Positions 8,085 to 22,664 of a DNA stretch of 64,000 nucleotides are shown piece by piece. Position 1 is the first letter of the stretch. Every line of letters begins with the position of its first letter. Both the position numbers and the translations under genes were made by a program. The notes below the pieces were generated by a model, which ran no database searches, was not told the DNA's origin, and was given only the letters and a program-made list of their open reading frames with translations. This DNA is from an uncultured bacterium (GTDB taxonomy: Bacteria; Chlamydiota; Chlamydiia; Chlamydiales; SM23-39), in contig OY970323.1 in assembly GCA_963716985.1 (NCBI GenBank), positions 1,728,001-1,792,000 on the forward strand, given 5' to 3'.

Positions 8085-9146
8085 TCATTTTGACTTCGGA
8101 TTAAATTCCTTGAGAAGCCCATCCGCACTATCGGTAAAGGCCATCCATGTCTCCCTTGCTTCCGTGCCTTGCAAAGAATTGACATAACCCGCCAAATTTC
8201 TTGCCTCTTTCCAAAGAGTCACTTGAGGAGATTCTTGAAGAGGGAAAAAATAATCATAAATCTTCAGGTAGAGGGGAGATTCTCTATCAATGACAGGGCC
8301 GCAATCGTCGGGAATCTGTTCTAGTTCTCGCAGTAGGGAAAACCTTTCTTTTTCTCTTCGGGGAAGGTTGCGGAAATTTTTTTGCAGTCGTTGCATTTCT
8401 GCGATTTTCGGAAAAAAAATGCGAGGAAGATTTTTCCAGGTAGGTTTTGTGGAAGAGCGAAGAATACATTCGACCATCACCCGAAAGCATTCTTCTAGCG
8501 TAGCCGGTTCTGATCCGCTCACTTCTTGTAGATAACTTTGCTTCGTCACAATGGGTCTTTCCGTCTCTCGCGCAGGCGCAGGAGCTCTCCTTGAAAAAAA
8601 ATTCTTGAACACCGTCAAAAATTTCTCACCAGCTGTAGGAGGGGAAGGCTGAGAGGGCAAAGGACGGACGTGATTTCTTAGGACGGCTTGGCAGAAAAGC
8701 GCTCTCTGTTCGGCTGTTTCGATTCTTTTGCCCTCCGCCCAGCTATCAAACAGTGGAACGATTTTGTTATACACAAGGCACATTCCGCCCATCCCTAAGA
8801 GGATTTGCGCCCAAGTCTTCGATCCGATAGCAACACCTCCGAAAAGTCCGCAAAGAGGAAGGGCTACGTAGACTATTTTGCTGATTTTTTCCCCTCTCTT
8901 GCCCTCCGCCCATCTCCACAACCGCTGAACGATCTTAACACCAAGGTACATCCCGCCCATTCCTAAGGGGATATGCGCCCAACTCTTCGATCCGATACCG
9001 GCACCTCCAAATAGTCCAAAAAGAGGAATGACCATCCAGGCATAATTTCTGATTTTGTCAATCGTCGATGGACGTCTATTTTGTTCATAGAGTTGCATGG
9101 GATCTGCCACAACCGTTAATCCTCTGTCGACGACACTCTGAGCCAC
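8085..9146 (-). CDS. Hypothetical membrane protein with duplicated hydrophobic hairpin (Inc-like candidate)
   Basis: GGAGG RBS; two repeats PL.GLFGG..IGSK.WA.I.LGMGGM.L...WAEGKR. Confidence 0.7.
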   Translation of the reverse strand: MAQSVVDRGLTVVADPMQLYEQNRRPSTIDKIRNYAWMVIPLFGLFGGAGIGSKSWAHIPLGMGGMYLGVKIVQRLWRWAEGKRGEKISKIVYVALPLCGLFGGVAIGSKTWAQILLGMGGMCLVYNKIVPLFDSWAEGKRIETAEQRALFCQAVLRNHVRPLPSQPSPPTAGEKFLTVFKNFFSRRAPAPARETERPIVTKQSYLQEVSGSEPATLEECFRVMVECILRSSTKPTWKNLPRIFFPKIAEMQRLQKNFRNLPRREKERFSLLRELEQIPDDCGPVIDRESPLYLKIYDYFFPLQESPQVTLWKEARNLAGYVNSLQGTEARETWMAFTDSADGLLKEFNPKSK

Positions 9147-9307
9147 ACCCCCCTCCTTTTTTCAAATCAATTTTAGCTAGATAGATTACCAGCTCTCAAA
9201 AGAAAAATACAAGATTTTGCGAACAGAGCGAAGAATCGAAGTTTCTTCCCCTTATTCGATCTTTTTTATATCCGCAAACTACTAACGATTACTCACATAT
9301 ATAAATC

Positions 9308-9356
9308 AATCGATAGCTCGATTAATTTTGCGGTTTTTTTAATCGACTGATCGATT
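9308..9356. promoter_or_regulatory. Pair of 16-bp palindromes AATCGA-N4-TCGATT, putative operators
   Basis: 9308-9323 and 9341-9356, directly upstream of the ATPase ORF. Confidence 0.55.
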
Positions 9357-9367
9357 AAAATAAGGTT

Positions 9368-10618
9368 ATGGCGACACGAGGTGAATTAAAAAAAGCTTTA
9401 CAGGACTGGCAGCAGTGGCTGAACAAAAACAGCCATTTGATCGTCCCCAGAAGCTCCCTTCTTAGTCAACAAAAGGATCTCTGCCTAGCGCTTACTGGGG
9501 TGAGGCGTTCCGGAAAATCCTCCATGACAGTCCAGTTGGCGCTGGGACGATTGGAGGAGACCTTTTTTTTTAATTTTGAGGATCCGATTTTTTTCCCAGG
9601 GGCCAGCGTTGAAGTACTTGATCAACTTCTCTCACTCTATGAAGAAGAAACAGGAAAGATGCCCAAGCTAGTAATTTTGGATGAAATCCAAAATGTCCAG
9701 GGATGGGAGCGGTGGGCGCGAAAAGCAATCGACTTAGGGCATTACCAAATCGTTATAACCGGCTCTTCTTCTCATTTATTGAGTTCCGAGATTGCGACAG
9801 CTCTTTCCGGACGGGTTATCGAACAAACTATCTGGCCCCTTTCCCTTTCCGAATATTTAACATTTTTGGGTAAAACGCCATCTACGAAGGGAGCTTGGTT
9901 ACGCGCATTAGAAAATTATCTGCGTTGGGGAGGCTTTCCAAAAGTCATCTTAACACCGGACGAAAATGATCGGATCATTTTATTAAAACAGTACCTTAGT
10001 GATATTGTGCTACGAGATGTTGTTGCAAGACACTCCATTAAAAACCAACAAGCCTTGCATCAAATAGTTAGTTTCTATTTAACAGGTGTGAGTTGTTTAC
10101 ATTCCTACAATTCCCTACGAAAAGCTTTTGAAATTTCGATTGAACTAGCCTCAACATTGACAGGTTATTTAACACAAGCTTTCCTTGTCTTTGAAATGAG
10201 CCGTTACCATCCCAATCTCAAAGTACAAGCCCGCGACCCTAAAAAAATTTACGTGATTGACACGGGCCTGCGCACAGTATCCCTGCAATCCAATCGAGAG
10301 GATTGGGGCCGTTTGGCGGAAAACGCTGTCTACTTAGAATTAAGGCGCAGGGGCAAACAAGCGTTCTATTATAAACAAGTGCAAGAAGTCGACTTTGTAA
10401 TCACAGAATTGGGAAAACCTGTAGATGCGATACAAGTGTGCTACTCCGATCTTGAGGATCAAGAAACGCGTAACCGCGAGATCAATGCTCTGCTAGAATG
10501 TTTGCGGGCCTTAGAACTCCCCTCGGGAAAAATATTAACACTTTCTTTGGAAGATGTGCTCTTAAAGGAGGAGAAAGCGATTCATCTCATCCCGCTCTAT
10601 CAATGGCTGTCTAAATGA
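9368..10618 (+). CDS. AAA_14 ATPase with DUF4143 C-terminal domain
   Basis: GVRRSGKS Walker A, LDEIQ Walker B, TGSSS, GGFP, KIYVIDTGL, AEN, EVDFV. Confidence 0.9.
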   Translation: MATRGELKKALQDWQQWLNKNSHLIVPRSSLLSQQKDLCLALTGVRRSGKSSMTVQLALGRLEETFFFNFEDPIFFPGASVEVLDQLLSLYEEETGKMPKLVILDEIQNVQGWERWARKAIDLGHYQIVITGSSSHLLSSEIATALSGRVIEQTIWPLSLSEYLTFLGKTPSTKGAWLRALENYLRWGGFPKVILTPDENDRIILLKQYLSDIVLRDVVARHSIKNQQALHQIVSFYLTGVSCLHSYNSLRKAFEISIELASTLTGYLTQAFLVFEMSRYHPNLKVQARDPKKIYVIDTGLRTVSLQSNREDWGRLAENAVYLELRRRGKQAFYYKQVQEVDFVITELGKPVDAIQVCYSDLEDQETRNREINALLECLRALELPSGKILTLSLEDVLLKEEKAIHLIPLYQWLSK

Positions 10619-10646
10619 GAGGACCTTTCAGCCAGACATGTTCTGA

Positions 10647-10690
10647 TTTTGCGCCGGTTTCATCTGGTTTAGTGCGTAAAAACTGCGTAA
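10647..10690 (+). repeat. Inverted repeat arm L (contains TGCGTAA x2)
   Basis: 37/44 identical to the reverse complement of 12655-12698; weaker similarity continues toward the tmRNA fragment. Confidence 0.8.
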
Positions 10691-10745
10691 ATTGATGTCG
10701 ACTTAGCAGATTTTATCTATGAAATTCAAGTTTGAATTCCCCAGT

Positions 10746-10766
10746 GTTCGATTCTCTCCACCTCCA
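10746..10766 (+). repeat. tmRNA 3'-end fragment, copy 1 (att-like)
   Basis: GTTCGATTCTCTCCACCTCCA resembles the chlamydial ssrA T-loop/acceptor end as recalled. Confidence 0.75.
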
Positions 10767-10776
10767 AAAATACTAG

Positions 10777-10800
10777 GCCCGGGAAATACCCGGGTTTTTT
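10777..10800 (+). terminator. Intrinsic terminator
   Basis: GCCCGGG-AAATA-CCCGGGT followed by a T run. Confidence 0.8.
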
Positions 10801-10816
10801 ATTAGGAAAAGCTGCA

Positions 10817-11605
10817 ATGCCATTCTCACATTATGTTCCTCAATTTTACATAAGAAATTTTGGACTCAACGAAAAGCAAACCGCTAGATTTGATAAAAAA
10901 ACAGGTCAAAAAAAAGTAGTGCCTATTGAAAGCTTCTGCGGAGAGACTGACTACTTCGCATTCGATAAAGAAAGCCTAGACAATCTTCCCAAGCATCTCC
11001 AATGGATTCATCAAGACTCGATCGAAAATTTATTGGGCTCTGATATTGAAGGCCCTGTAAGCTCTATATTGAAAACTCTTATAGCTGAAAGAACGTTGCA
11101 AGCTATCTCAGAAAGCAATATCCGAATGCTTCTAGAATGGGGTGCATGGATGTTTATAGCCAACCCGCAATCCATAGCGCTAAGTTCAATTGAAACAATA
11201 ACGAATCACTACCTGGATATTGATCATACAAAACTCTCCAAAACAGAAAGACTGAAATTATTTATAGATCTTCATGAGCAGATAACTCCAATTTTCCAAA
11301 AACGAGGATGGATTCTCCAATTGATCGATCCAAATCATGGATATCTACTATCGAGTGATCGACCAGTCATGGTTGGAGGCAGGTCCCTGCAAGAGCTTCC
11401 ACAACTTTCAAATCAAACGATTATTTTCCCCCTATCTCCCCAATTAGTCCTCATAGGCAATAGCAATCCTATTTGGGGCTACGCCAGCAAACCCCTTGAA
11501 AGCACAAAAGAAGCTTCCCTCATGACAAATATTCTCACTCTAGCACAATCTTTTCGATTTATATTCGGGGCTGACATGAGTGACATAGACAATTTAGTGT
11601 CTTAA
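10817..11605 (+). CDS. DUF4238 domain protein
   Basis: N-terminal HYVPQFYIRNF, SSDRPV and FPLSP motifs. Confidence 0.75.
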   Translation: MPFSHYVPQFYIRNFGLNEKQTARFDKKTGQKKVVPIESFCGETDYFAFDKESLDNLPKHLQWIHQDSIENLLGSDIEGPVSSILKTLIAERTLQAISESNIRMLLEWGAWMFIANPQSIALSSIETITNHYLDIDHTKLSKTERLKLFIDLHEQITPIFQKRGWILQLIDPNHGYLLSSDRPVMVGGRSLQELPQLSNQTIIFPLSPQLVLIGNSNPIWGYASKPLESTKEASLMTNILTLAQSFRFIFGADMSDIDNLVS

Positions 11606-11625
11606 ACGACAAACCCAAGCTTTGA

Positions 11626-11654
11626 GAAATTTTAAATGCATTTATCCACCTCCA
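11626..11654 (+). repeat. tmRNA 3'-end fragment, copy 2 (degenerate)
   Basis: GAAATTTTAAATGCATTTATCCACCTCCA compared with GAAAGTTCTGAATGCATCTCTCCACCTCCA. Confidence 0.7.
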
Positions 11655-11755
11655 TTTCTCATTGACCTATGATTTTTCAAAAAGAGCTGGTAAACATTCT
11701 TCTGAACGTTGCCTAATTTTCTCTTTTTGAGTTATACAAAAATGTTAACGACAAC

Positions 11756-11828
11756 TATAATGTTTGTATTATCCCGCATGGAGACCCCATGCGAAAGCCA
11801 CGGGCTCCGGCCCGTGGTTTCTTTTTTC
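11756..11828 (+). promoter_or_regulatory. -10 box and structured leader ending in an intrinsic terminator, upstream of the NYN gene
   Basis: TATAAT 11756-61; hairpin CGCATGG/CCATGCG 11775-93; AAGCCACGGG/CCCGTGGTTT plus T run 11795-11828. Confidence 0.65.
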
Positions 11829-11841
11829 ACTTGGATCGAAT

Positions 11842-12498
11842 ATGCAACCAAAACGGGTCGTATCTTTCGTAGATGGTTTCAATCTCTATCACGCTATAGA
11901 TAATCTTCGACGTCCAGAACTGAAATGGGTCAATTTGACAACTCTTTCTCAAGTATTTCTCAAACCTATTTCTGAAAAACTTGTCAGAGTATTTTACTTT
12001 TCTGCTTATGCCGATCATATGCCCGAACCAGTTCAAAAACGACAAAAGGCTTATGTGCAAGCTTTATCACTACAAGGTGTTCAACCAATTCTTGGAAATT
12101 TCAAAAGGAAAGATAGAAAATGCCCTGAATGCCATCATAAATGGATTGGACATGAAGAAAAAGAAACAGATGTCAATATCGCTTTGTATCTTCTCGATCT
12201 CGCTTATCAAGATGCTTTTGATCGCGCGCTGATCATTTCCAATGATTCTGATCTTTCCCCAGCTATTAGAATGGTCAGAAAACGTTTTCCTGAAAAATGC
12301 ATTACCACGGTAGTTCCTCCTAATTGCTTACACAGTAACGAATTGATTAGAGCCTCTTCCGATAAGACAAAAATCCGCGTAGAACATCTTGAACGTTGTC
12401 TTTTGCCAGAAGTTGTAACTGATGCTTCTCGCTTGATTTCAATATCACGCCCGAAGGAGTATGCTCCAGCTGTTTTAGCTGTTTCTTCAAAACCATGA
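11842..12498 (+). CDS. NYN-domain (PIN-like) ribonuclease with CxxC insert
   Basis: FVDGFNLYH, EEKETDVNIA, ISNDSDLSP; CPEC. Confidence 0.9.
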   Translation: MQPKRVVSFVDGFNLYHAIDNLRRPELKWVNLTTLSQVFLKPISEKLVRVFYFSAYADHMPEPVQKRQKAYVQALSLQGVQPILGNFKRKDRKCPECHHKWIGHEEKETDVNIALYLLDLAYQDAFDRALIISNDSDLSPAIRMVRKRFPEKCITTVVPPNCLHSNELIRASSDKTKIRVEHLERCLLPEVVTDASRLISISRPKEYAPAVLAVSSKP

Positions 12499-12526
12499 TT
12501 ATTTTCATCGCCATTTGATCCCATCG

Positions 12527-12556
12527 GAAAGTTCTGAATGCATCTCTCCACCTCCA
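12527..12556 (+). repeat. tmRNA 3'-end fragment, copy 3
   Basis: AAAGTTCTGAATGCATCTCTCCACCTCCA identical to 14976-15004. Confidence 0.85.
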
Positions 12557-12565
12557 ATCCAAATT

Positions 12566-12600
12566 AAGGCTTCAGTTTCGCGACTGAAGCCTTTTGTTTT
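12566..12600 (+). terminator. Intrinsic terminator
   Basis: AAGGCTTCAGT-TTCGCG-ACTGAAGCCTT followed by a T-rich tail. Confidence 0.85.
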
Positions 12601-12654
12601 TAGTGACATACAACTAGAAATTCACACCTAAAAATTCAGCTGCGCAAAGCTCAA

Positions 12655-12698
12655 TTACGCAGTATTTACGCACTAGACTGGATGAAATCAGAGCAAAA
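12655..12698 (-). repeat. Inverted repeat arm R
   Basis: Reverse complement matches 10647-10690 at 37/44. Confidence 0.8.
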
Positions 12699-12711
12699 CG
12701 ACCACTTCTTT

Positions 12712-12843
12712 TCACTTTTTTCGCTGTGGAGAAAAGTACTTCATCAAGAACTCTGCATACCAATTTTCAAGCTCCTGTCGGATTTTTTCCATCACTTCAG
12801 GAATAAGAACAATTTCCTGTTCAGATATGAATCCAGTTATCAA
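12712..12843 (-). pseudogene. Orphan 43-aa C-terminal gene fragment cut by ISKra4
   Basis: Open frame LITGFISEQ...SPQRKK* runs from the IS end to a stop. Confidence 0.4.
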
Positions 12844-12845
12844 TT

Positions 12846-14537
12846 GAGTGTGTTCGATTTGACTTCAAAAACCGAATTTATGATGCATTGATGGTTCGAT
12901 ATAATCTTTGCCGCTCCATCTCGATATAATATTCAAAATATTTATCCCAATCCCCGTTCTGATTAACCGCACGTAAATTTAGAATCGCCTGTACTCCTTC
13001 ATGCGTCCACTTCATGCCAGACCGATCGGTTCTGTTTTTTACGAGACTGCCACAAGCGCCCTCAACAACACCTGTGCCGATCGGATATCCCTTTTTTAAG
13101 TACTCGTCATATTTCATCATGTGCTTGTGATTGCTTAAATATGTGATCACTTTTTGCAGCATCGACTTCTGGCTCTCTTTCAGACCACGCTTGTTTTTCT
13201 TAAGAATTTGTCTCATGGCCCCTACGACATACCCAACTTTTCCCTCTAAAATCGCAAGCAGCTTGTCAGCAACCCATTGCTGTCTTCTTTGATCTTTCTC
13301 CCCATATAAGGCGGTTCCGCTTTCCCACAAATACTCAGTAGCATGAAAAATATCTAAAATATAAGCGTCAACGCGATGCTTCCATTTTCTTTTTGCCATC
13401 TCTTCTTTAAAGCGATTCTCAAGTGCCGAGGCTCCATCGATCAACACGATCATTTTTTTATCCTGCGCGGGATTTCTGTGTAATATCTGATCGGCAAGTC
13501 TTTCAAAGGCTTTTTCTTTGCCATCCATCGCAGCATGAACTTCTTTGTTAATAGGCTCTCTTGGTTCCAATTTTCCTGCTTCCCGTCTTTCTTTCTTGTG
13601 ATCGGCATACTCCGCTTGTTCTCGATCTGTATGCCAATGCATAAGGCTTTTTTGCATCTCCTGGGGCGTACGAGATTCGGGGTGAAATGTAAAATGAGAA
13701 GTCACCACTGCATCTCTTCGTAGCCCTTTCCTTTTATCGCCCTTTTCTCTGCGTACTTTTTTCTGTTTTGGTTCTTTATTAGGAGATCTTTCTTCCGGAA
13801 CCATGGGAATGCCTTTGCAATCCATTGTCACTGCTATAACCGAACCTTCTGTATCTTCAAATTTTTTGATTCCTTTATAGAAGCTATGAACATAAGCTGC
13901 TGCTCTCATAACCATAGACTGGATTGCTTCTGGCCATAGACAGATTCCGAAAATTTTGTCGATTGTGGATAAAGCTTCACGATACGGCTGAGAAGCGATC
14001 AGCTTAAGGGTCATGTCTTGTAAAGCGTAAGAAAACTTTCCTTCCGGCAGATTCAGCTGATGATCCAAAGGACACAGTCCTTCTCCAGATCCTTTTTTCC
14101 AATAATAAGCGCGTTTGATCTTAACAGGGCCAAAAATTGACAAATACTCTCTTTCTGATTCCGCTTTAAATGGAAGTTGTGCTCCTTGGGTGTTATACGC
14201 ACAGTCATTTGGTGTGTCCTGGAGGGAATCTAAATGCTCCTGTAAGATCTTTTTACCCATTTCTAATATTGTTGCATAAATGGTGTTCTCGGTCTTATGC
14301 AAGGAATCCTCTCTGATTGTGCTCAAATGTTTTTTCAAAACGCACAACAAGTTACCAGAAGATCCAATTTTGGTCTCAATATGATGCAGTTCCAGGAAAA
14401 AATCTCCATAACATATGCAAGTTACGCAAATGTTATGCAAAATTTTAGCTTTAAAGTAAAATATTTTTTATAAGAAAGGAGAAATTTTCCCTATGATGGA
14501 TAACGGAATGGGGATAGAAGTCAAATCGAACACACTC
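12846..14537 (-). mobile_element. ISKra4-family insertion sequence
   Basis: Perfect 21-bp TIR GAGTGTGTTCGATTTGACTTC at both ends; no target duplication visible. Confidence 0.9.
12878..14440 (-). CDS. ISKra4-family transposase
   Basis: DCKG, LIDGA, LDIFHATEYLW, YL.KGYPIGTGVVEGAC, RSGMKW motifs. Confidence 0.9.
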   Translation of the reverse strand: MHNICVTCICYGDFFLELHHIETKIGSSGNLLCVLKKHLSTIREDSLHKTENTIYATILEMGKKILQEHLDSLQDTPNDCAYNTQGAQLPFKAESEREYLSIFGPVKIKRAYYWKKGSGEGLCPLDHQLNLPEGKFSYALQDMTLKLIASQPYREALSTIDKIFGICLWPEAIQSMVMRAAAYVHSFYKGIKKFEDTEGSVIAVTMDCKGIPMVPEERSPNKEPKQKKVRREKGDKRKGLRRDAVVTSHFTFHPESRTPQEMQKSLMHWHTDREQAEYADHKKERREAGKLEPREPINKEVHAAMDGKEKAFERLADQILHRNPAQDKKMIVLIDGASALENRFKEEMAKRKWKHRVDAYILDIFHATEYLWESGTALYGEKDQRRQQWVADKLLAILEGKVGYVVGAMRQILKKNKRGLKESQKSMLQKVITYLSNHKHMMKYDEYLKKGYPIGTGVVEGACGSLVKNRTDRSGMKWTHEGVQAILNLRAVNQNGDWDKYFEYYIEMERQRLYRTINAS

Positions 14538-14827
14538 AAAAGAAGAGTACGCAAATAAGGAACAATCAACGGACCGAGCGCAATATTTTCATGCGTCTCA
14601 ATAAAAATCGTTCGGTAGCCTTCACTTTTTGCCAAATGCTCAATTTCATTGAGTAGTACGGTTTTGCCCACTCCGCGGAGCCCCGTCAACAACATACTCT
14701 TTTCAGACCGCTTTTGCTTGATCCGACCTAAAAGAATTCGGGCTTGCTCAAGAGCAGGGCCCCTCCCGACCAGTTCAGGCGGTGGAGAGCCAGCTCCAGG
14801 TGAAAAAGGATTTTTGATTGGATCCAT
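14538..14827 (-). pseudogene. AAA_16-type ATPase, 3'-truncated by ISKra4
   Basis: NPFSPGAGSPPPELVGR and LTGLRGVGKT; the frame runs into the IS TIR. Confidence 0.85.
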
Positions 14828-14975
14828 GATGTCCTAGTTATATCAACTTATGCAAACTTATACCAGAAACCAGAAATAAGTAGGTATAAGAATGTATAGG
14901 TTTCTGCCAATGAAAGACTAAGATCCATGCGAAATTTTGAATAAATTGAATACTTTCATGATTTCAATCTGGTCA

Positions 14976-15004
14976 AAAGTTCTGAATGCATCTCTCCACC
15001 TCCA
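14976..15004 (+). repeat. tmRNA 3'-end fragment, copy 4
   Basis: 29-bp identity with copy 3. Confidence 0.85.
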
Positions 15005-15008
15005 TTTC

Positions 15009-15040
15009 GGCCGGGCTTACAAATTCGGCCTTTTTTCTTT
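15009..15040 (+). terminator. Intrinsic terminator
   Basis: GGCCGG...TCGGCC stem followed by a T run. Confidence 0.7.
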
Positions 15041-16868: not shown

Positions 16869-18116
16869 ATGACACAGGCTGTTGGCTTTTTCAAAATATC
16901 TCCTCCCCTCTTTTCGATCAATTCCAAGGCCATCTCTTTTTTCACCGATGCAAAAATAAAAATCGTTGTTGCCAACATTCTGTTTCTGCTAGGGATTTTG
17001 GCCATCGGAATTGCTACAGGAGGCTTCGGCTTTCTTCCCCATATCCTTCCCCTATCAGAGGTCTCGGTAAAAATCCTATCCCTACTTGGCCTCTTGAGCC
17101 CAATCGTGGGAATTTACTTGTTTCAATCGCTAGATTCTAGCTTTTCCACTTGCGTAAATGAGCCGCCGATCGGAATTGAAAATGTCTCGAACAACTGCTG
17201 GGCCAACTCTCTTCTTCAGTTTTGTCAAGCGGTGCCCGTGCTGAAAAATTTCTGCAAAAGCCAATGGTTTTGGCAAACTCTTCACCCAATCGGATCCTTC
17301 CTCGCCGAGTACGAGTCCGATCAAAACCGAAAGTCAGCCGTTTCTGCGGCAAACAGCCAAGCGGTCCGCGCATGTTTGAGCGCTCAATCAGTCTCCTATA
17401 TCGCAGCAAATGGCACGCGGGAGCGCTCCATCAGCTCTGACATGCACGTGCAATGCGATGCTTCCGAAGCTTTGTCCATTATCCTAAATCAAATGTCCTG
17501 CCCGGTAAAAATGCAAACCATCCACCGGTGCAAAAATCACGAAAGAGAATGGGTTTCCTCCCCTCAAGAATATCAGGACATGCCTAAAATTGAGCTCCCT
17601 CTGGGCCGGTCGCGCTCCTTTGTTCGACTCTTCGAGTCTTTCTTAAAAAGCACTCCTCAAGAGCCGATTGAAGGGATGGAAGATCCCATCACAAAGAAAA
17701 GAGACGGCCACGTAGTTTCCGAGGAGCGGCTTTTTCAAAGCGCGCCGCCCGATCTTTTCGTGAGCTTGGGCCGTTTTGCCAATCAAAGAACAAGCTGGCT
17801 TGGAGCAAGCTGGCTTGGTCGGCTCTTTGGCGGGGCCGATGTGGAACTTCTGAAAGTCGATGATGCAATCGACATTCCCGACGTCATTCCTCTCAAAGAT
17901 GAGTTCGTTCACACCCACAAGGGAGCGAACTATCAGGTTGACGCCTTTATCCAGCATAGAGGTAGCAGCCTCGGCCAAGGCCACTATGTAGCCTATGTCA
18001 AATCTCCCGAAGGCGTCTGGTTTGAATGTAATGATGCCCTTGTTCGCCGCATCTCCCTCTCGACTGCCGAAAGAGAGAGAGCTCGTGCCTACCTTCTGCA
18101 TTTTCACAAAGTCTAA
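16869..18116 (+). CDS. Ubiquitin-specific protease (USP/C19)-like protein with N-terminal TM segments, paralog 1
   Basis: Cys box GIENVSNNCWANSLLQ, QCDASE, His box HRGSSLGQGHYVAY...WFECND. Confidence 0.85.
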   Translation: MTQAVGFFKISPPLFSINSKAISFFTDAKIKIVVANILFLLGILAIGIATGGFGFLPHILPLSEVSVKILSLLGLLSPIVGIYLFQSLDSSFSTCVNEPPIGIENVSNNCWANSLLQFCQAVPVLKNFCKSQWFWQTLHPIGSFLAEYESDQNRKSAVSAANSQAVRACLSAQSVSYIAANGTRERSISSDMHVQCDASEALSIILNQMSCPVKMQTIHRCKNHEREWVSSPQEYQDMPKIELPLGRSRSFVRLFESFLKSTPQEPIEGMEDPITKKRDGHVVSEERLFQSAPPDLFVSLGRFANQRTSWLGASWLGRLFGGADVELLKVDDAIDIPDVIPLKDEFVHTHKGANYQVDAFIQHRGSSLGQGHYVAYVKSPEGVWFECNDALVRRISLSTAERERARAYLLHFHKV

Positions 18117-21464: not shown

Positions 21465-22664
21465 TTGGATAAAATGTCACAAATAACTGATTTGCGTGCA
21501 ACAACATCAAGCGCCCCCGGAACAAGCCGCGAAGCGGCTTCACTTGCTACAGAGAAAAAAACATCACATGCTACAGCCTATATGTTTACAGCACTTAGCA
21601 TTGTAGCCCTCGGGGCTCTCGTAACAGGAGGCCTTGGCATCATTCCCACGGCAGGCTTCTTGGCAAAAACAACTCTTTCAGTTGGCGGAGTCGCGAGTTT
21701 CATCGCAGGAATGTTTTCAGTTCGATCAAACGAGCCTTCTCGCCCCTCCATTCAGTTTCCCATCGGAATTCCGAATGCTCAAATGAACTGCTGGGCCAAC
21801 TCTTTGCTTCAAATGTGCAGAGCCGTTCCCATGCTACAAGAGTTCTTGATCGGACAGAAAGAGAGAGAACTCTCTCCCATAGGATTGGTCCTCGCTCAAT
21901 ATGAAAATGATCAAGAAAGAGGACGAACGATTTCTCGGGCAGATAGTCAACAAGTTCGCCTCTGTCTCAGCCGGTTTTCGGACGGCATCAGCCGAGATGG
22001 GGCTGTGCAGTGCGATGCTTCGGAGGGCCTGTCCCTCATCCTCGAAAGAATGAACTCCCCAAAACTGCCCAAAATGCAAGCCATCTACCGATGCAAAAAT
22101 AAAGCACACGAATGGGTGACTTCCTCCGGTGTTTTTGACCCTATGCCAAAACTCGAACTAATCCTGGACGGCTCGCGCTCTTTTTTGCAAATCTTTGAAT
22201 CCTTCTTAAAGAAAAAGCCCAAAGAATCAGAGCATAATTACCAAGACCCCTCCACAGACACAAGAGATGGACATGTCGTTTCTGAAGAGCTGCTTTTTGA
22301 AAAAACTCCAGACGAGCTTTTTATTAGTTTGAAGCGTTTCGTCAATCAAAAAAAGGGATTTTTTACACGCCTCTTTTCAGACGCCTCCCACGAACTTATG
22401 AAAATCACAGACCCAATCGATGTTCCCGAAACCTTTCATCTAAAAGAGGAGTTCGTTCGGACACGCGAGGGTGCAGACTATCAAGTAGACGCTTTTATAC
22501 AGCACAAAGGACCCACTTGTAATGGTGGTCACTATATTGCCTATATCAAAGCGCCGGACGGAACCTGGTTTGCATGCGATGATTCCGATACACGCGCCAT
22601 GACAGCGGAAGAGGTAAAAGCCGCTCTATCCGACGCTTACATCTACCACTTCCATCGACTCTAA
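21465..22664 (+). CDS. USP/C19-like protein with N-terminal TM segments, paralog 2
   Basis: GIPNAQMNCWANSLLQ, QCDASE, HKGPTCNGGHYIAY...WFACDD. Confidence 0.85.
   Translation: MDKMSQITDLRATTSSAPGTSREAASLATEKKTSHATAYMFTALSIVALGALVTGGLGIIPTAGFLAKTTLSVGGVASFIAGMFSVRSNEPSRPSIQFPIGIPNAQMNCWANSLLQMCRAVPMLQEFLIGQKERELSPIGLVLAQYENDQERGRTISRADSQQVRLCLSRFSDGISRDGAVQCDASEGLSLILERMNSPKLPKMQAIYRCKNKAHEWVTSSGVFDPMPKLELILDGSRSFLQIFESFLKKKPKESEHNYQDPSTDTRDGHVVSEELLFEKTPDELFISLKRFVNQKKGFFTRLFSDASHELMKITDPIDVPETFHLKEEFVRTREGADYQVDAFIQHKGPTCNGGHYIAYIKAPDGTWFACDDSDTRAMTAEEVKAALSDAYIYHFHRL

Follow-up and report, generated by a model that had tools for sequence, protein, structure and literature searches.

A block of small units between a sulfatase and a TLC gene

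The stretch of DNA analysed here (64 kb, from an uncultured member of the Chlamydiota; henceforth the window) carries a block of small units in the interval between a sulfatase and a TLC gene. The features of the block are given in Table 1. A 14-nt core occurs four times, at positions 10753, 11641 (with two mismatches), 12543 and 14991; the chance expectation is 0.60 ± 0.74, and four or more copies appeared in none of 100 shuffles, so the four direct repeats reported in a first-pass annotation are real. Copies 3 and 4 agree at all 29 nt, and copy 2 has 79% identity. The genome contains a single intact tmRNA gene, found with ARAGORN at c[758382,758744]; none was found within the 64-kb window. 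As had been suspected, the repeats match the 3' end of this genome's own ssrA, which shares 21 contiguous nucleotides with copy 1 (10746-10766) and 14 with copies 3 and 4. Terminator-like hairpins follow copies 1, 3 and 4, again as first described, and the hairpin search found none downstream of copy 2. The hairpins at the repeats are terminators only, and differ from copy to copy.

Table 1. Features of the block, in window positions.
Feature	Position	Strand	Basis or remark
353-aa orphan ORF	8085..9146	-	Pfam: no match; no paralog in this genome
AAA_14-DUF4143 ATPase, PADLOC candidate PDC-S01	9368..10618	+	Pfam, PADLOC
Arm-type site, predicted right end of tyrosine-integrase element	10647..10695	+	TGCGTAA direct repeat, 10673-10690; putative function
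Copy 1	10715..10766	+	attR of class B; intact T-loop, ssrA end and conserved T(A/G)TCTAT box
Intrinsic terminator after copy 1	10775..10797	+	Hairpin search
DUF4238 gene, unit 1 cargo	10817..11605	+	Pfam
Copy 2	11626..11654	+	Degenerate class A attR; antisense reads WRWINAFKI
Two-hairpin leader, conserved, 5' of NYN gene	11766..11826	+	Behind sigma70-like promoter, 11733-11761
NYN-domain RNase, PADLOC candidate HEC-09, unit 2 cargo	11842..12498	+	Pfam, PADLOC
Copy 3	12528..12556	+	attR of class A: C-terminal LSR tail (antisense WRWRDAFRTFRW...) and 14-nt ssrA core
Terminator (12566-93) and inverted arm site (12655-72)	12566..12698	+	Left end, tyrosine-integrase ssrA elements
Last 43 codons of deleted gene	12712..12843	-	Remnant beyond IS
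IS, UPF0236 transposase, 23-nt inverted repeats	12846..14538	-	3 more genomic copies, 99%
AAA_16 ATPase, N-terminal fragment	14539..14827	-	~97 N-terminal codons left
Copy 4 and terminator (15009-15030)	14976..15030	+	Class A attR, antisense WRWRDAFRTFDQ...

The two middle units are 888 bp (unit 1) and 902 bp (unit 2) long and hold one gene each, in agreement with the initial estimate of 0.9 kb. Pfam bears out the cargo (AAA_14 with DUF4143, DUF4238, NYN, UPF0236 and AAA_16); however, the AAA-DUF4143 gene, at first counted among the delimited segments, has no left repeat within the window. Together with its arm this gene is 93% identical to DNA at L127 that lies 8-9 kb beyond the final site in an ssrA array, and it is the last gene of an element of the tyrosine-integrase type. 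Behind the genome's real ssrA come a terminator of related sequence and the 5' portion of a DUF4238 paralog (71-78% nucleotide identity), and all five of the other loci homologous to the DUF4238 gene lie directly behind ssrA, with differing left ends; no relative was confirmed among metagenome contigs. An att core lies near 3 of the 29 loci homologous to the NYN RNase, and for neither gene are the window's unit boundaries kept elsewhere. The two-hairpin leader of the NYN gene, which matched no Rfam family at gathering score, lies outside the att system.

Unit 3 had been read as an AAA ATPase broken by an insertion sequence. The IS is present, but only the N-terminal part of the ATPase remains, and the codons on the other side are the end of a different gene. 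An intact 397-aa copy of the AAA_16 gene (94% nucleotide identity) lies at genome position 1996066-1997259; the 43-codon remnant is 62% identical to the C-terminal end of its counterpart in another genome (G039, L046). That counterpart lies in a unit of 8.6 kb, of which unit 3 is a truncated relative. The other three copies of the IS have 8-9 bp target duplications. The window copy has none, which suggests an adjacent deletion. In a congener (G001) the sulfatase gene adjoins the TLC gene without the 353-aa ORF between them, so this ORF is part of the inserted block or lies beside it; the empty site there shows neither a core nor a target duplication.

Large serine recombinase and tyrosine-integrase elements

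The left flank of copies 2-4 is shown by its codon pattern to encode the C-terminal tail (WRWR|DAFRTF) of a large serine recombinase (LSR). Across 157 sites the variable flank positions (-1 G/A, -4 T/C and -19 A/G) coincide with third codon positions of D-A-F-R-T-F-D-W; the antisense reading of 159 sites stays open for 28 aa in the median before a stop; and at seven natural junctions LSR coding sequence is joined in frame to the tail. The flank is conserved above 90% at most positions in sites that were themselves picked by that att pattern (at least 80 loci with flanks in each of two lists). Base by base, the window repeat is accounted for by LSR codons plus the ssrA 3' end.

These comparisons show that the LSR attP lies inside the LSR gene and that copies 2-4 are attR scars (class A) of primase-bearing elements. 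They likewise show the integrated LSR gene crossing the attachment site, with its end in antisense tmRNA or tRNA codons, and an alternative LSR ending, DAFRTF(D/Q)W..., of ~28 codons that is kept at the far end of the element. In phage Mx8 and archaeal SSV1, too, the integrase has its C-terminus exchanged or split off on integration, and a piece of the gene stays behind at the distal end; those integrases, unlike the chlamydial LSR, are of the tyrosine type. Of 120 database homologs of the LSR, 4 carry natural ends of the W..DAFRTF type (or a close variant), 65 end in antisense-RNA peptides and 51 are unclassified. No solved structure was matched by the LSR sequence. The LSR occurs in 91 of 400 genomes of the phylum (with G045 unscored), in many as a C-terminal remnant, and at 30 loci it ends in tmRNA (13), tRNA-Tyr (10), tRNA-Met (3) or tRNA-Leu (1), or is cut (3).

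Among the elements listed, LSR elements measure 6.6-16.5 kb, a range that leaves out 7 of 23: three spurious pattern matches taken as right ends (L226, L229, L234), three elements that extend past the fetched DNA, and L083, whose sites are internal. They have an LSR of ~496 aa beside their target RNA gene; a primase/helicase and a SpoVG-like gene often come next, with cargo after them. The backbone genes recurring in 14 representatives are AAA_25/DUF927/DUF3987 primase-helicases, SpoVG and unknown ORFs; no relaxase was found among the families scanned. The right half-site motif of these elements, ATTGGTTGG, mirrors the left arm.

Copy 1 is shown by similar comparisons to be the right end, and the DNA after copy 3 the left end, of a second, tyrosine-integrase type of element (class B). 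The first-pass annotation had overlooked a 44-nt inverted repeat (10647-90 and 12655-98), which we interpret as a pair of putative integrase arm sites. Most class B sites have the arm motif 5' of them, at a comparable distance, and it also occurs beside the integrase homolog at 15 of 15 loci. The region after copy 3 is 89% identical over 161 nt to L292, where the order is ssrA, terminator, arm and then integrase. The class B integrase matches PF00589, the class A enzyme being an LSR, and the family with TGCGTAA arm repeats is shown to use the same RNA ends as the LSR family.

Three further candidates were set aside. A tyrosine integrase as the class A enzyme was rejected, since only 4 of 97 array loci have a match (the integrases of this genome supplied the profile, and three of its four positive controls were in the training set). 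A 313-aa PF00589 gene near a weak site at genome position 349620, which we take to be XerC, lies among housekeeping genes; it was dropped once the flank turned out to be LSR codons. For a phage helper, viral contigs gave no site matches and the LSR query returned one distant locus, at 35%.

Neither enzyme is encoded in this genome. The LSR search and the PF07508 profile gave no match, apart from a lone LSR remnant of 35 residues at tRNA-Tyr; among the 11 PF00589 matches, none of which is within the window, no close relative of the ssrA-type tyrosine integrase was found (best 47%, versus 71-93% in the ssrA-linked clade). The window thus holds neither a tmRNA gene nor an integrase, as first noted, and mobilisation in trans, which had been proposed, cannot operate here now; historically it is possible.

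Units across genomes and the origin of the array

Among 282 related unit pairs, 97 share the left end only, 36 the right end only, 135 neither, 10 both ends with large indels, and four match whole; just one of the four (L385/L419, a one-gene unit of 1124 bp at 92% identity) has different neighbours on both sides, and its left cores differ too. No window unit was found whole elsewhere. To judge from these alignments, most units look like deletion or hybrid derivatives: one 2.3-kb unit is an internal deletion of an 8.4-kb LSR element (93% identity, both ends retained), and a true two-ended derivative is present at L417. Pointing the other way, related flanking sequence reaches past the core in 9 of 114 units, versus 1.5% of random pairs. 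Array content varies among genomes, as expected at the outset; the sample holds mostly one genome per species, and recent cassette moves are therefore hidden. Whether the units are eroded ends of larger islands has a divided answer: the 6.6-16.5 kb parents and an erosion gradient exist, yet so does cassette-sized variation.

Of note is the fact that 71 of 121 class A units begin with a core and terminator. Their median length is 1.3 kb, they do not carry ATTGGTTGG, and 68 of the 71 are without an LSR or backbone remnant, so that for most small units, among them window units 1 and 2, no parent is directly seen. The window units retain attR tails (copy 2 is damaged), with left ends that are terminator-led or of the tyrosine type.

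We consider it probable (about 0.68) that the array arose by accretion of integration scars, and that it has been displaced from ssrA and is immobile today. Crossover would occur at the TC just 3' of the T-loop, and successive insertions would push older elements outward. Integrase modules of neighbouring elements, facing one another across a junction, may have been lost by deletion and recombination; this would leave one-gene hybrids, with the left end of one element and the right end of another, that could have been retained for their cargo. The block of ~6 kb would then have moved to the sulfatase-TLC interval by a rearrangement without identifiable trace. Given that neither enzyme is in the genome, the array would be a relic, mobile again solely with an incoming helper element.

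The terminator-led one-gene units can also be viewed as mobile cassettes. A visiting LSR with relaxed directionality, of which Ccr is an example, would recombine tail, core and terminator with ssrA or another site; small circles would be moved in trans and accumulate into a store of cassettes. The number and small size of terminator-led units, nearly all without backbone, fit this view, as do the L385/L419 unit, a 657-bp unit flanked by copies of a 183-bp direct repeat starting at the core, tmRNA-type cores behind tRNA-Tyr (G040), chimeric cores behind ssrA (L317) and a mini-array at an ectopic site in G403. However, with the right half-site motif missing, the ends of such units are attB-like and attR-like, and we know of no recombination between such ends by canonical LSRs. 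Just one of the 282 pairs fits, no window unit occurs whole elsewhere and the enzyme is missing from this genome; we regard mobile cassettes as unlikely.

Doubtful, too, is the wider proposal of an integron-analogous gene store across the Chlamydiota, based on serine integrases, in which cassettes of less than 1 kb to 2 kb, bounded only by LSR C-terminal codons and an RNA-gene 3' end, would be shuffled in trans among ssrA, tRNA-Tyr and ectopic sites that mimic a T-loop, of which copy 1 is one, with direction set by the C-terminal tail of the LSR. If one-gene units do move in trans, they would constitute a serine-recombinase counterpart of integrons.

The location of the block bears on its displacement. 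The array lies ~980 kb from ssrA, on the opposite strand; a second array stands at ssrA itself, where all five sites are damaged, and the copy 4 region has 85% identity over 85 nt to a site there. Logan contigs from four runs (X1, X2, X4, X5) cover the block in short pieces at shallow coverage, with no joint. One account differs from the preferred reading in the displacement only: the window would hold an ectopic attP, made up of arm, T-loop core, terminator and inverted arm in that order and brought in by a circle that had opened at another point, with units 1 and 2 inserted into the intact T-loop and the array growing away from ssrA. The arms do face each other across copies 1-3; L127 has the same ends without the permutation, beginning with terminator and arm and finishing with AAA-DUF4143 and arm; and LSR elements sit inside class B sites at L134 and L106, which makes the class B core a usable target. 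Yet a class B site, units and a left end of terminator and arm also follow one another in an ordinary ssrA array (G016), other genomes too have displaced blocks with tmRNA-type cores (G159, with a duplicated 511-aa ORF as flank, and G223, inverted), and the congener's empty site has no core. An ectopic attP is possible, but the odds are against it.

Integrons and CALINs are arrays of short one-gene units with defence-like cargo, and the array had been called integron-like on similar grounds. That description is not supported: the junctions are LSR attR sites and tyrosine-integrase element ends at RNA genes, and there is no sign of IntI, attI or attC. A true cassette array without an integrase (CALIN type), with the repeats as attC sites, would account for one-gene units of ~0.9 kb with such cargo. 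It is nevertheless highly improbable, because LSR codons and the ssrA 3' end account for the repeat in full, the sole hairpins are terminators downstream of the repeats, the tyrosine integrases near arrays are arm-associated or fragments (4 of 97 loci), and the one pair of whole cassettes in different contexts includes no window unit.

Comparison with known systems

The stacking of elements is a known way to collect genes; here it is found far from ssrA and without enzymes. The array works like the Dehalococcoides ssrA islands and cis-mobilisable elements. What is new is the Chlamydiota host, the one-gene units, the two integrase systems and the displaced block. We found no published description of the chlamydial elements, and the TIGER/Islander database may already list intact ones.

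The Dehalococcoides islands, as far as the relevant parts of that paper describe them, depend on the serine integrase DsiB, and 15 of 31 are without an integration module (McMurdie et al. 2011, PMC3146451). Shared with the chlamydial system are tandem units bounded by ssrA 3' direct repeats, a reverse-strand LSR gene of variable C-terminus overlapping attL, a conserved non-ssrA motif just 5' of the repeat, and T-loop insertion; the likeness to DsiB is one of organisation, and the LSR gene is that of parent elements in relatives (PMC3146451). In contrast, chlamydial units are often of one gene (median 1.6-1.8 kb), their LSR family also targets tRNA-Tyr, -Met and -Leu, and a tyrosine-integrase family is interleaved. 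The six-gene Dehalococcoides module (DsiA, RecF-like, ParB, Mom, large ORF) is unmatched by the primase/helicase and SpoVG backbone of the 14 representatives, and arrays there lie within 100 kb downstream of ssrA, unlike the distant, opposite-strand window array (PMC3146451).

CIMEs, in the account drawn on here, are decayed integrase-less elements of 1.2-13 kb (geneless microCIMEs, 130-220 bp) in tandem at one target, with recombination between tandem elements proposed (PMC7563491). Like them, the window units have no recombinase or mobilisation gene; unlike them, the ends come from two recombinase families, whereas CIMEs retain attL and attR and descend from ICEs or IMEs, no complete element adjoins the units, and the parents have no relaxase among families scanned (PMC7563491). 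SCC and the Enterococcus cassette chromosome are likewise LSR-based, with att sites of ~50 bp with dyad symmetry, remnants and variable cargo, and 16 of 32 have multiple attR sites; they differ in target (rlmH), in using two recombinases (CcrAB) and in size (21-78 kb), and the consulted part of the source does not mention an att within the recombinase gene (PMC6222049). Prochlorococcus tycheposons, as outlined in the portion used, are small elements with an integrase, primase/helicase and cargo, stacked at tRNA and tmRNA genes; newcomers displace older ones and leave partial tRNAs and fragmented integrases, but a tyrosine-recombinase clade of their own defines them (910 of 937 have a tyrosine recombinase), whereas the dominant chlamydial scar is that of an LSR (10.1101/2020.12.28.424599).

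The array in the window is a relic, and only a modest case of its kind. The two families of small integrative elements, with common ssrA and tRNA targets, are a main route by which environmental chlamydiae, obligate intracellular organisms, acquire accessory and defence-like genes. The 29-nt scar can be counted in any genome. Natural att sites now number in the hundreds and the LSR is available in its two C-terminal forms, so that a regulation of the integrase by the tail swap, a question left open in the work on Dehalococcoides, becomes directly testable (PMC3146451).

Origin of the repeats and of their left flank

Four repeats lie where the first-pass annotation had placed them, and their occurrence is not random: four matches were found, compared to 0.60 ± 0.74 in shuffled sequences. 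The supposed likeness to the 3' end of tmRNA is genuine, with alignment to the sole tmRNA gene of this genome (~980 kb from the window repeats, on the opposite strand) giving 21 nt for copy 1 and 14 nt for copies 3 and 4; copy 2 agrees with the ssrA core at 12 of 14 nt. The three terminator-like hairpins noted after repeats were also recovered, 3' of copies 1, 3 and 4. Domain searches returned the cargo families originally named, and PADLOC annotates the AAA-DUF4143 protein as candidate system PDC-S01 and the NYN protein as candidate HEC-09. The AAA ATPase described as IS-broken does adjoin an IS, but damage in unit 3 exceeds that description: ~97 codons of the AAA gene are left, across the IS lies the end of a different gene, and this IS, unlike its three other copies, has no 8-9 bp target duplication. 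The end of this second gene has a relative (62% over 42 aa) within an 8.6-kb unit of genome G039; the first 273 bp are common to that unit and unit 3 (82%).

The left flank is the coding tail of a large serine recombinase (LSR) of 496 aa, with Resolvase, Recombinase and zinc-ribbon domains, which a few units carry. The gene is oriented toward ssrA and runs across the core, such that the integrated protein ends in ...NWRWR-ESNSRP, with residues from antisense tmRNA. In the same frame the repeat reads WRWR-DAFRTF(D/Q)W, with a stop after a median of 28 residues (159 sites), and the bases that vary fall at the third place of codons. Among 120 database homologs the natural end is a DAFRTF-type tail or close variant in 4 and an antisense-RNA peptide in 65, with 51 unclassified by pattern. 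Seven natural junctions join LSR coding sequence and tail in frame, and carry TTG(A/G)TTGG motifs mirrored about TC, the symmetry being one base off. Together the tail codons and the in-frame junctions show that attP sits within the LSR gene and that copies 2-4 are attR scars. Because serine recombinases use a 2-bp overlap, crossover would fall at TC, the dinucleotide common to all four targets 3' of the T-loop.

LSR matches, many of them C-terminal remnants, occur in 91 of 400 genomes of the phylum. By end sequence, 30 LSR loci divide into tmRNA (13), tRNA-Tyr (10), tRNA-Met (3), tRNA-Leu (1) and cut off (3). For 16 of the 23 elements examined a convincing right end was found at 6.6-16.5 kb, and the interval frequently held a primase/helicase and a SpoVG gene. 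A PF07508 search of this genome gave no match; the genome does have one unrelated 205-aa resolvase and a 35-residue LSR remnant at tRNA-Tyr.

Copy 1 is a site of another class, with an intact T-loop and a TGCGTAA direct repeat ~60-80 nt upstream. The 15 loci that encode a tyrosine integrase family of 354 aa are all flanked by such repeats, and several sit at ssrA or at tRNA-Tyr, -Leu or -Met; the ssrA-linked integrases are 71-93% identical, and the closest integrase in this genome is 47% identical. At one locus (L292) ssrA is followed by the terminator seen after copy 3, an inverted arm and the integrase, with 89% identity to the window over 161 nt. In another ssrA array (L127), DNA ~8 kb beyond a left end of this kind matches the window AAA-DUF4143 gene plus arm at 93% identity. 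From these likenesses it follows that unit 3 begins as tyrosine-type and ends as LSR-type, a combination found in 14 of 121 units.

Related sites and displacement from ssrA

Behind the real ssrA of this genome are five further sites, every one damaged, and behind its tRNA-Tyr are three with the same left flank and a tRNA-Tyr core (Table). Of the 41 genomes searched for the 29-mer, 15 contain it, this genome being one of them, and none contains its reversed control; an exact-match scan of species genomes returned at least 130 stretches, mostly titled chlamydiae, from several families. Arrays usually start at ssrA. Units ending in a class A site (LSR tail plus ssrA core; n = 115) measure 1.6 kb at the median, and 52 of them are no longer than 1.5 kb; in a larger set of 189 units the median is 1.8 kb. 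Cargo is varied (334 ORFs in 241 clusters), recurring families including RhuM, AbiEii, Fic, AlbA-ATPase and GNAT.

Coordinates of features in this genome, the window and genome G403
Feature	Sequence	Position	Strand	Content
ssrA array (L001)	genome	739829-758382	-	HipA pair, AbiEii, nucleotidyltransferase, Hsp70 block, IS and group II intron insertions
tRNA-Tyr array (L002)	genome	665283-669487	+	same site type
Geneless repeat behind tRNA-Tyr	genome	654487-657790		
tRNA-Met (cat) stack	genome	858800-970107		six full or partial tRNA copies interleaved with six tyrosine integrases
Prophage-like locus (L008)	genome	801023-809745		terminase-, portal- and methylase-like genes
Mini-array (L346)	G403:C1	817228-817867		class A
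NYN leader	window	11766-11826	+	two hairpins
Orphan ORF	window	8085-9146	-	two hydrophobic stretches
UCH ORF	window	16869-18116		ubiquitin C-terminal hydrolase domain
Related-looking ORF	window	21465-22664		

For DISPLACEMENT, the congener G001 has the sulfatase gene adjoining TLC with no core between, and the block at the window is thus an insertion. One option is that a piece of an ssrA array was relocated to the sulfatase-TLC interval. Class B sites (tyrosine-integrase type) holding LSR elements (L134 and L106) would suit another, which we consider possible but somewhat unlikely: an ectopic tyrosine attP, comprising arm, T-loop core, terminator and inverted arm, acquired units 1 and 2 in place. 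Displacement is not unique to this genome, since G159, G403 and G040 likewise have tmRNA-core sites elsewhere than at ssrA, and G223 has an inverted block. The G403 mini-array lies 175 kb from ssrA in the opposite orientation, just after genes that we take to be an ATPase operon.

Relics or mobile cassettes

We put at roughly two in three the probability that the units are relics of larger elements. In 282 related unit pairs the shared part is the left end only in 97, the right only in 36 and neither end in 135; both ends with large indels are shared in 10, and the whole unit in 4, two of which have identical flanks. A 2.3-kb unit (L417) is an internal deletion of an 8.4-kb element (L217), at 93% identity and with both ends intact. 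The five other DUF4238 loci all lie directly behind ssrA and differ in their left ends, three being of tyrosine type. Of the 29 NYN loci only three lie near a core, and the nearest relative (82% nt) is not among them.

Cassette-wise movement of units we regard as unlikely, notwithstanding several observations in its favor. A core plus terminator opens 71 of 121 units, and 68 of these lack any backbone trace; a 1,124-bp one-gene unit is common whole to L385 and L419 at 92%, with different neighbors and left cores; and the related arrays L410 and L087 have proximal units in common and a different distal unit. Related flanking sequence extends past the core in 9 of 114 units, against 1.5% of random pairs, by up to 183 and 433 bp. 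Terminator-led units, however, lack the LSR right half-site motif, which leaves them with one attB-like and one attR-like end, and canonical LSRs are not known to recombine such a pair. Relaxed LSR enzymes might, and that terminator-led units are mobile in trans is a shade more doubtful still.

The left ends at six loci (L063, L074, L094, L112, L120 and L363) form a family that retains the LSR half-site (~12 nt beyond the core) before folding back on it as a hairpin; these are candidate true miniature non-autonomous LSR elements. Terminators directly behind ssrA at L074 and L126 hold the LSR tail sequence in reverse complement beside a piece of ssrA, and are possibly products of aberrant recombination.

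Known systems and neighboring features

McMurdie et al. (PMC3146451) report tandem ssrA islands in which the LSR gene overlaps attL and has a variable C-terminus, the repeat is preceded by a conserved motif that is not part of ssrA, and the integration module is absent from 15 of 31 islands. The chlamydial small units and 174-217 bp repeats match CIMEs (1.2-13 kb) and geneless microCIMEs (130-220 bp; PMC7563491); ECC/SCC (PMC6222049) and tycheposons (bioRxiv 2020.12.28.424599) show the same stacking as the chlamydial arrays. The window feature works like these systems and, whether judged by module or by position, falls outside the Dehalococcoides family. The integron-like interpretation proposed initially was not borne out; the feature is not an integron, and its junctions are attR sites of LSR elements together with ends of tyrosine-integrase elements. 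Our literature searches found no description of these chlamydial elements, which does not establish their absence from print. The principle is known; the lineage is new, and so is the combination of units holding a single gene, integrases of two families, four RNA targets and a block that has been displaced.

Geneless, microCIME-like repeats (174-217 bp, core to core) stand in tandem behind ssrA in genome G016 (L041 and L042), and a similar one lies behind tRNA-Tyr of this genome. The tRNA-Met (cat) copies form a conventional tandem island stack.

A conserved, RNA-like leader (L256-L284) separates a TATAAT box from the start codon of the NYN gene; it was recovered by pattern in 18 of 29 homolog loci, and inspection by eye shows a similar two-hairpin sequence in the remaining 11. 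Across 19 sequences, two-sided change occurs in 7 of 14 predicted pairs, a count that ignores kinship. An Rfam search returned no family at gathering score and a literature search on the leader found nothing; it might act as an attenuator, or as an RNA antitoxin to the NYN RNase.

The orphan ORF, not at the congener's locus, contains internal 118-nt repeats spaced at 168 nt. The UCH ORF, of a eukaryote-like family, could encode a host-directed effector; the ORF at 21465-22664 looks related to it. At L008 the prophage-like genes, named from translations, stand beside a 325-aa integrase that resembles chlamydial plasmid integrases.
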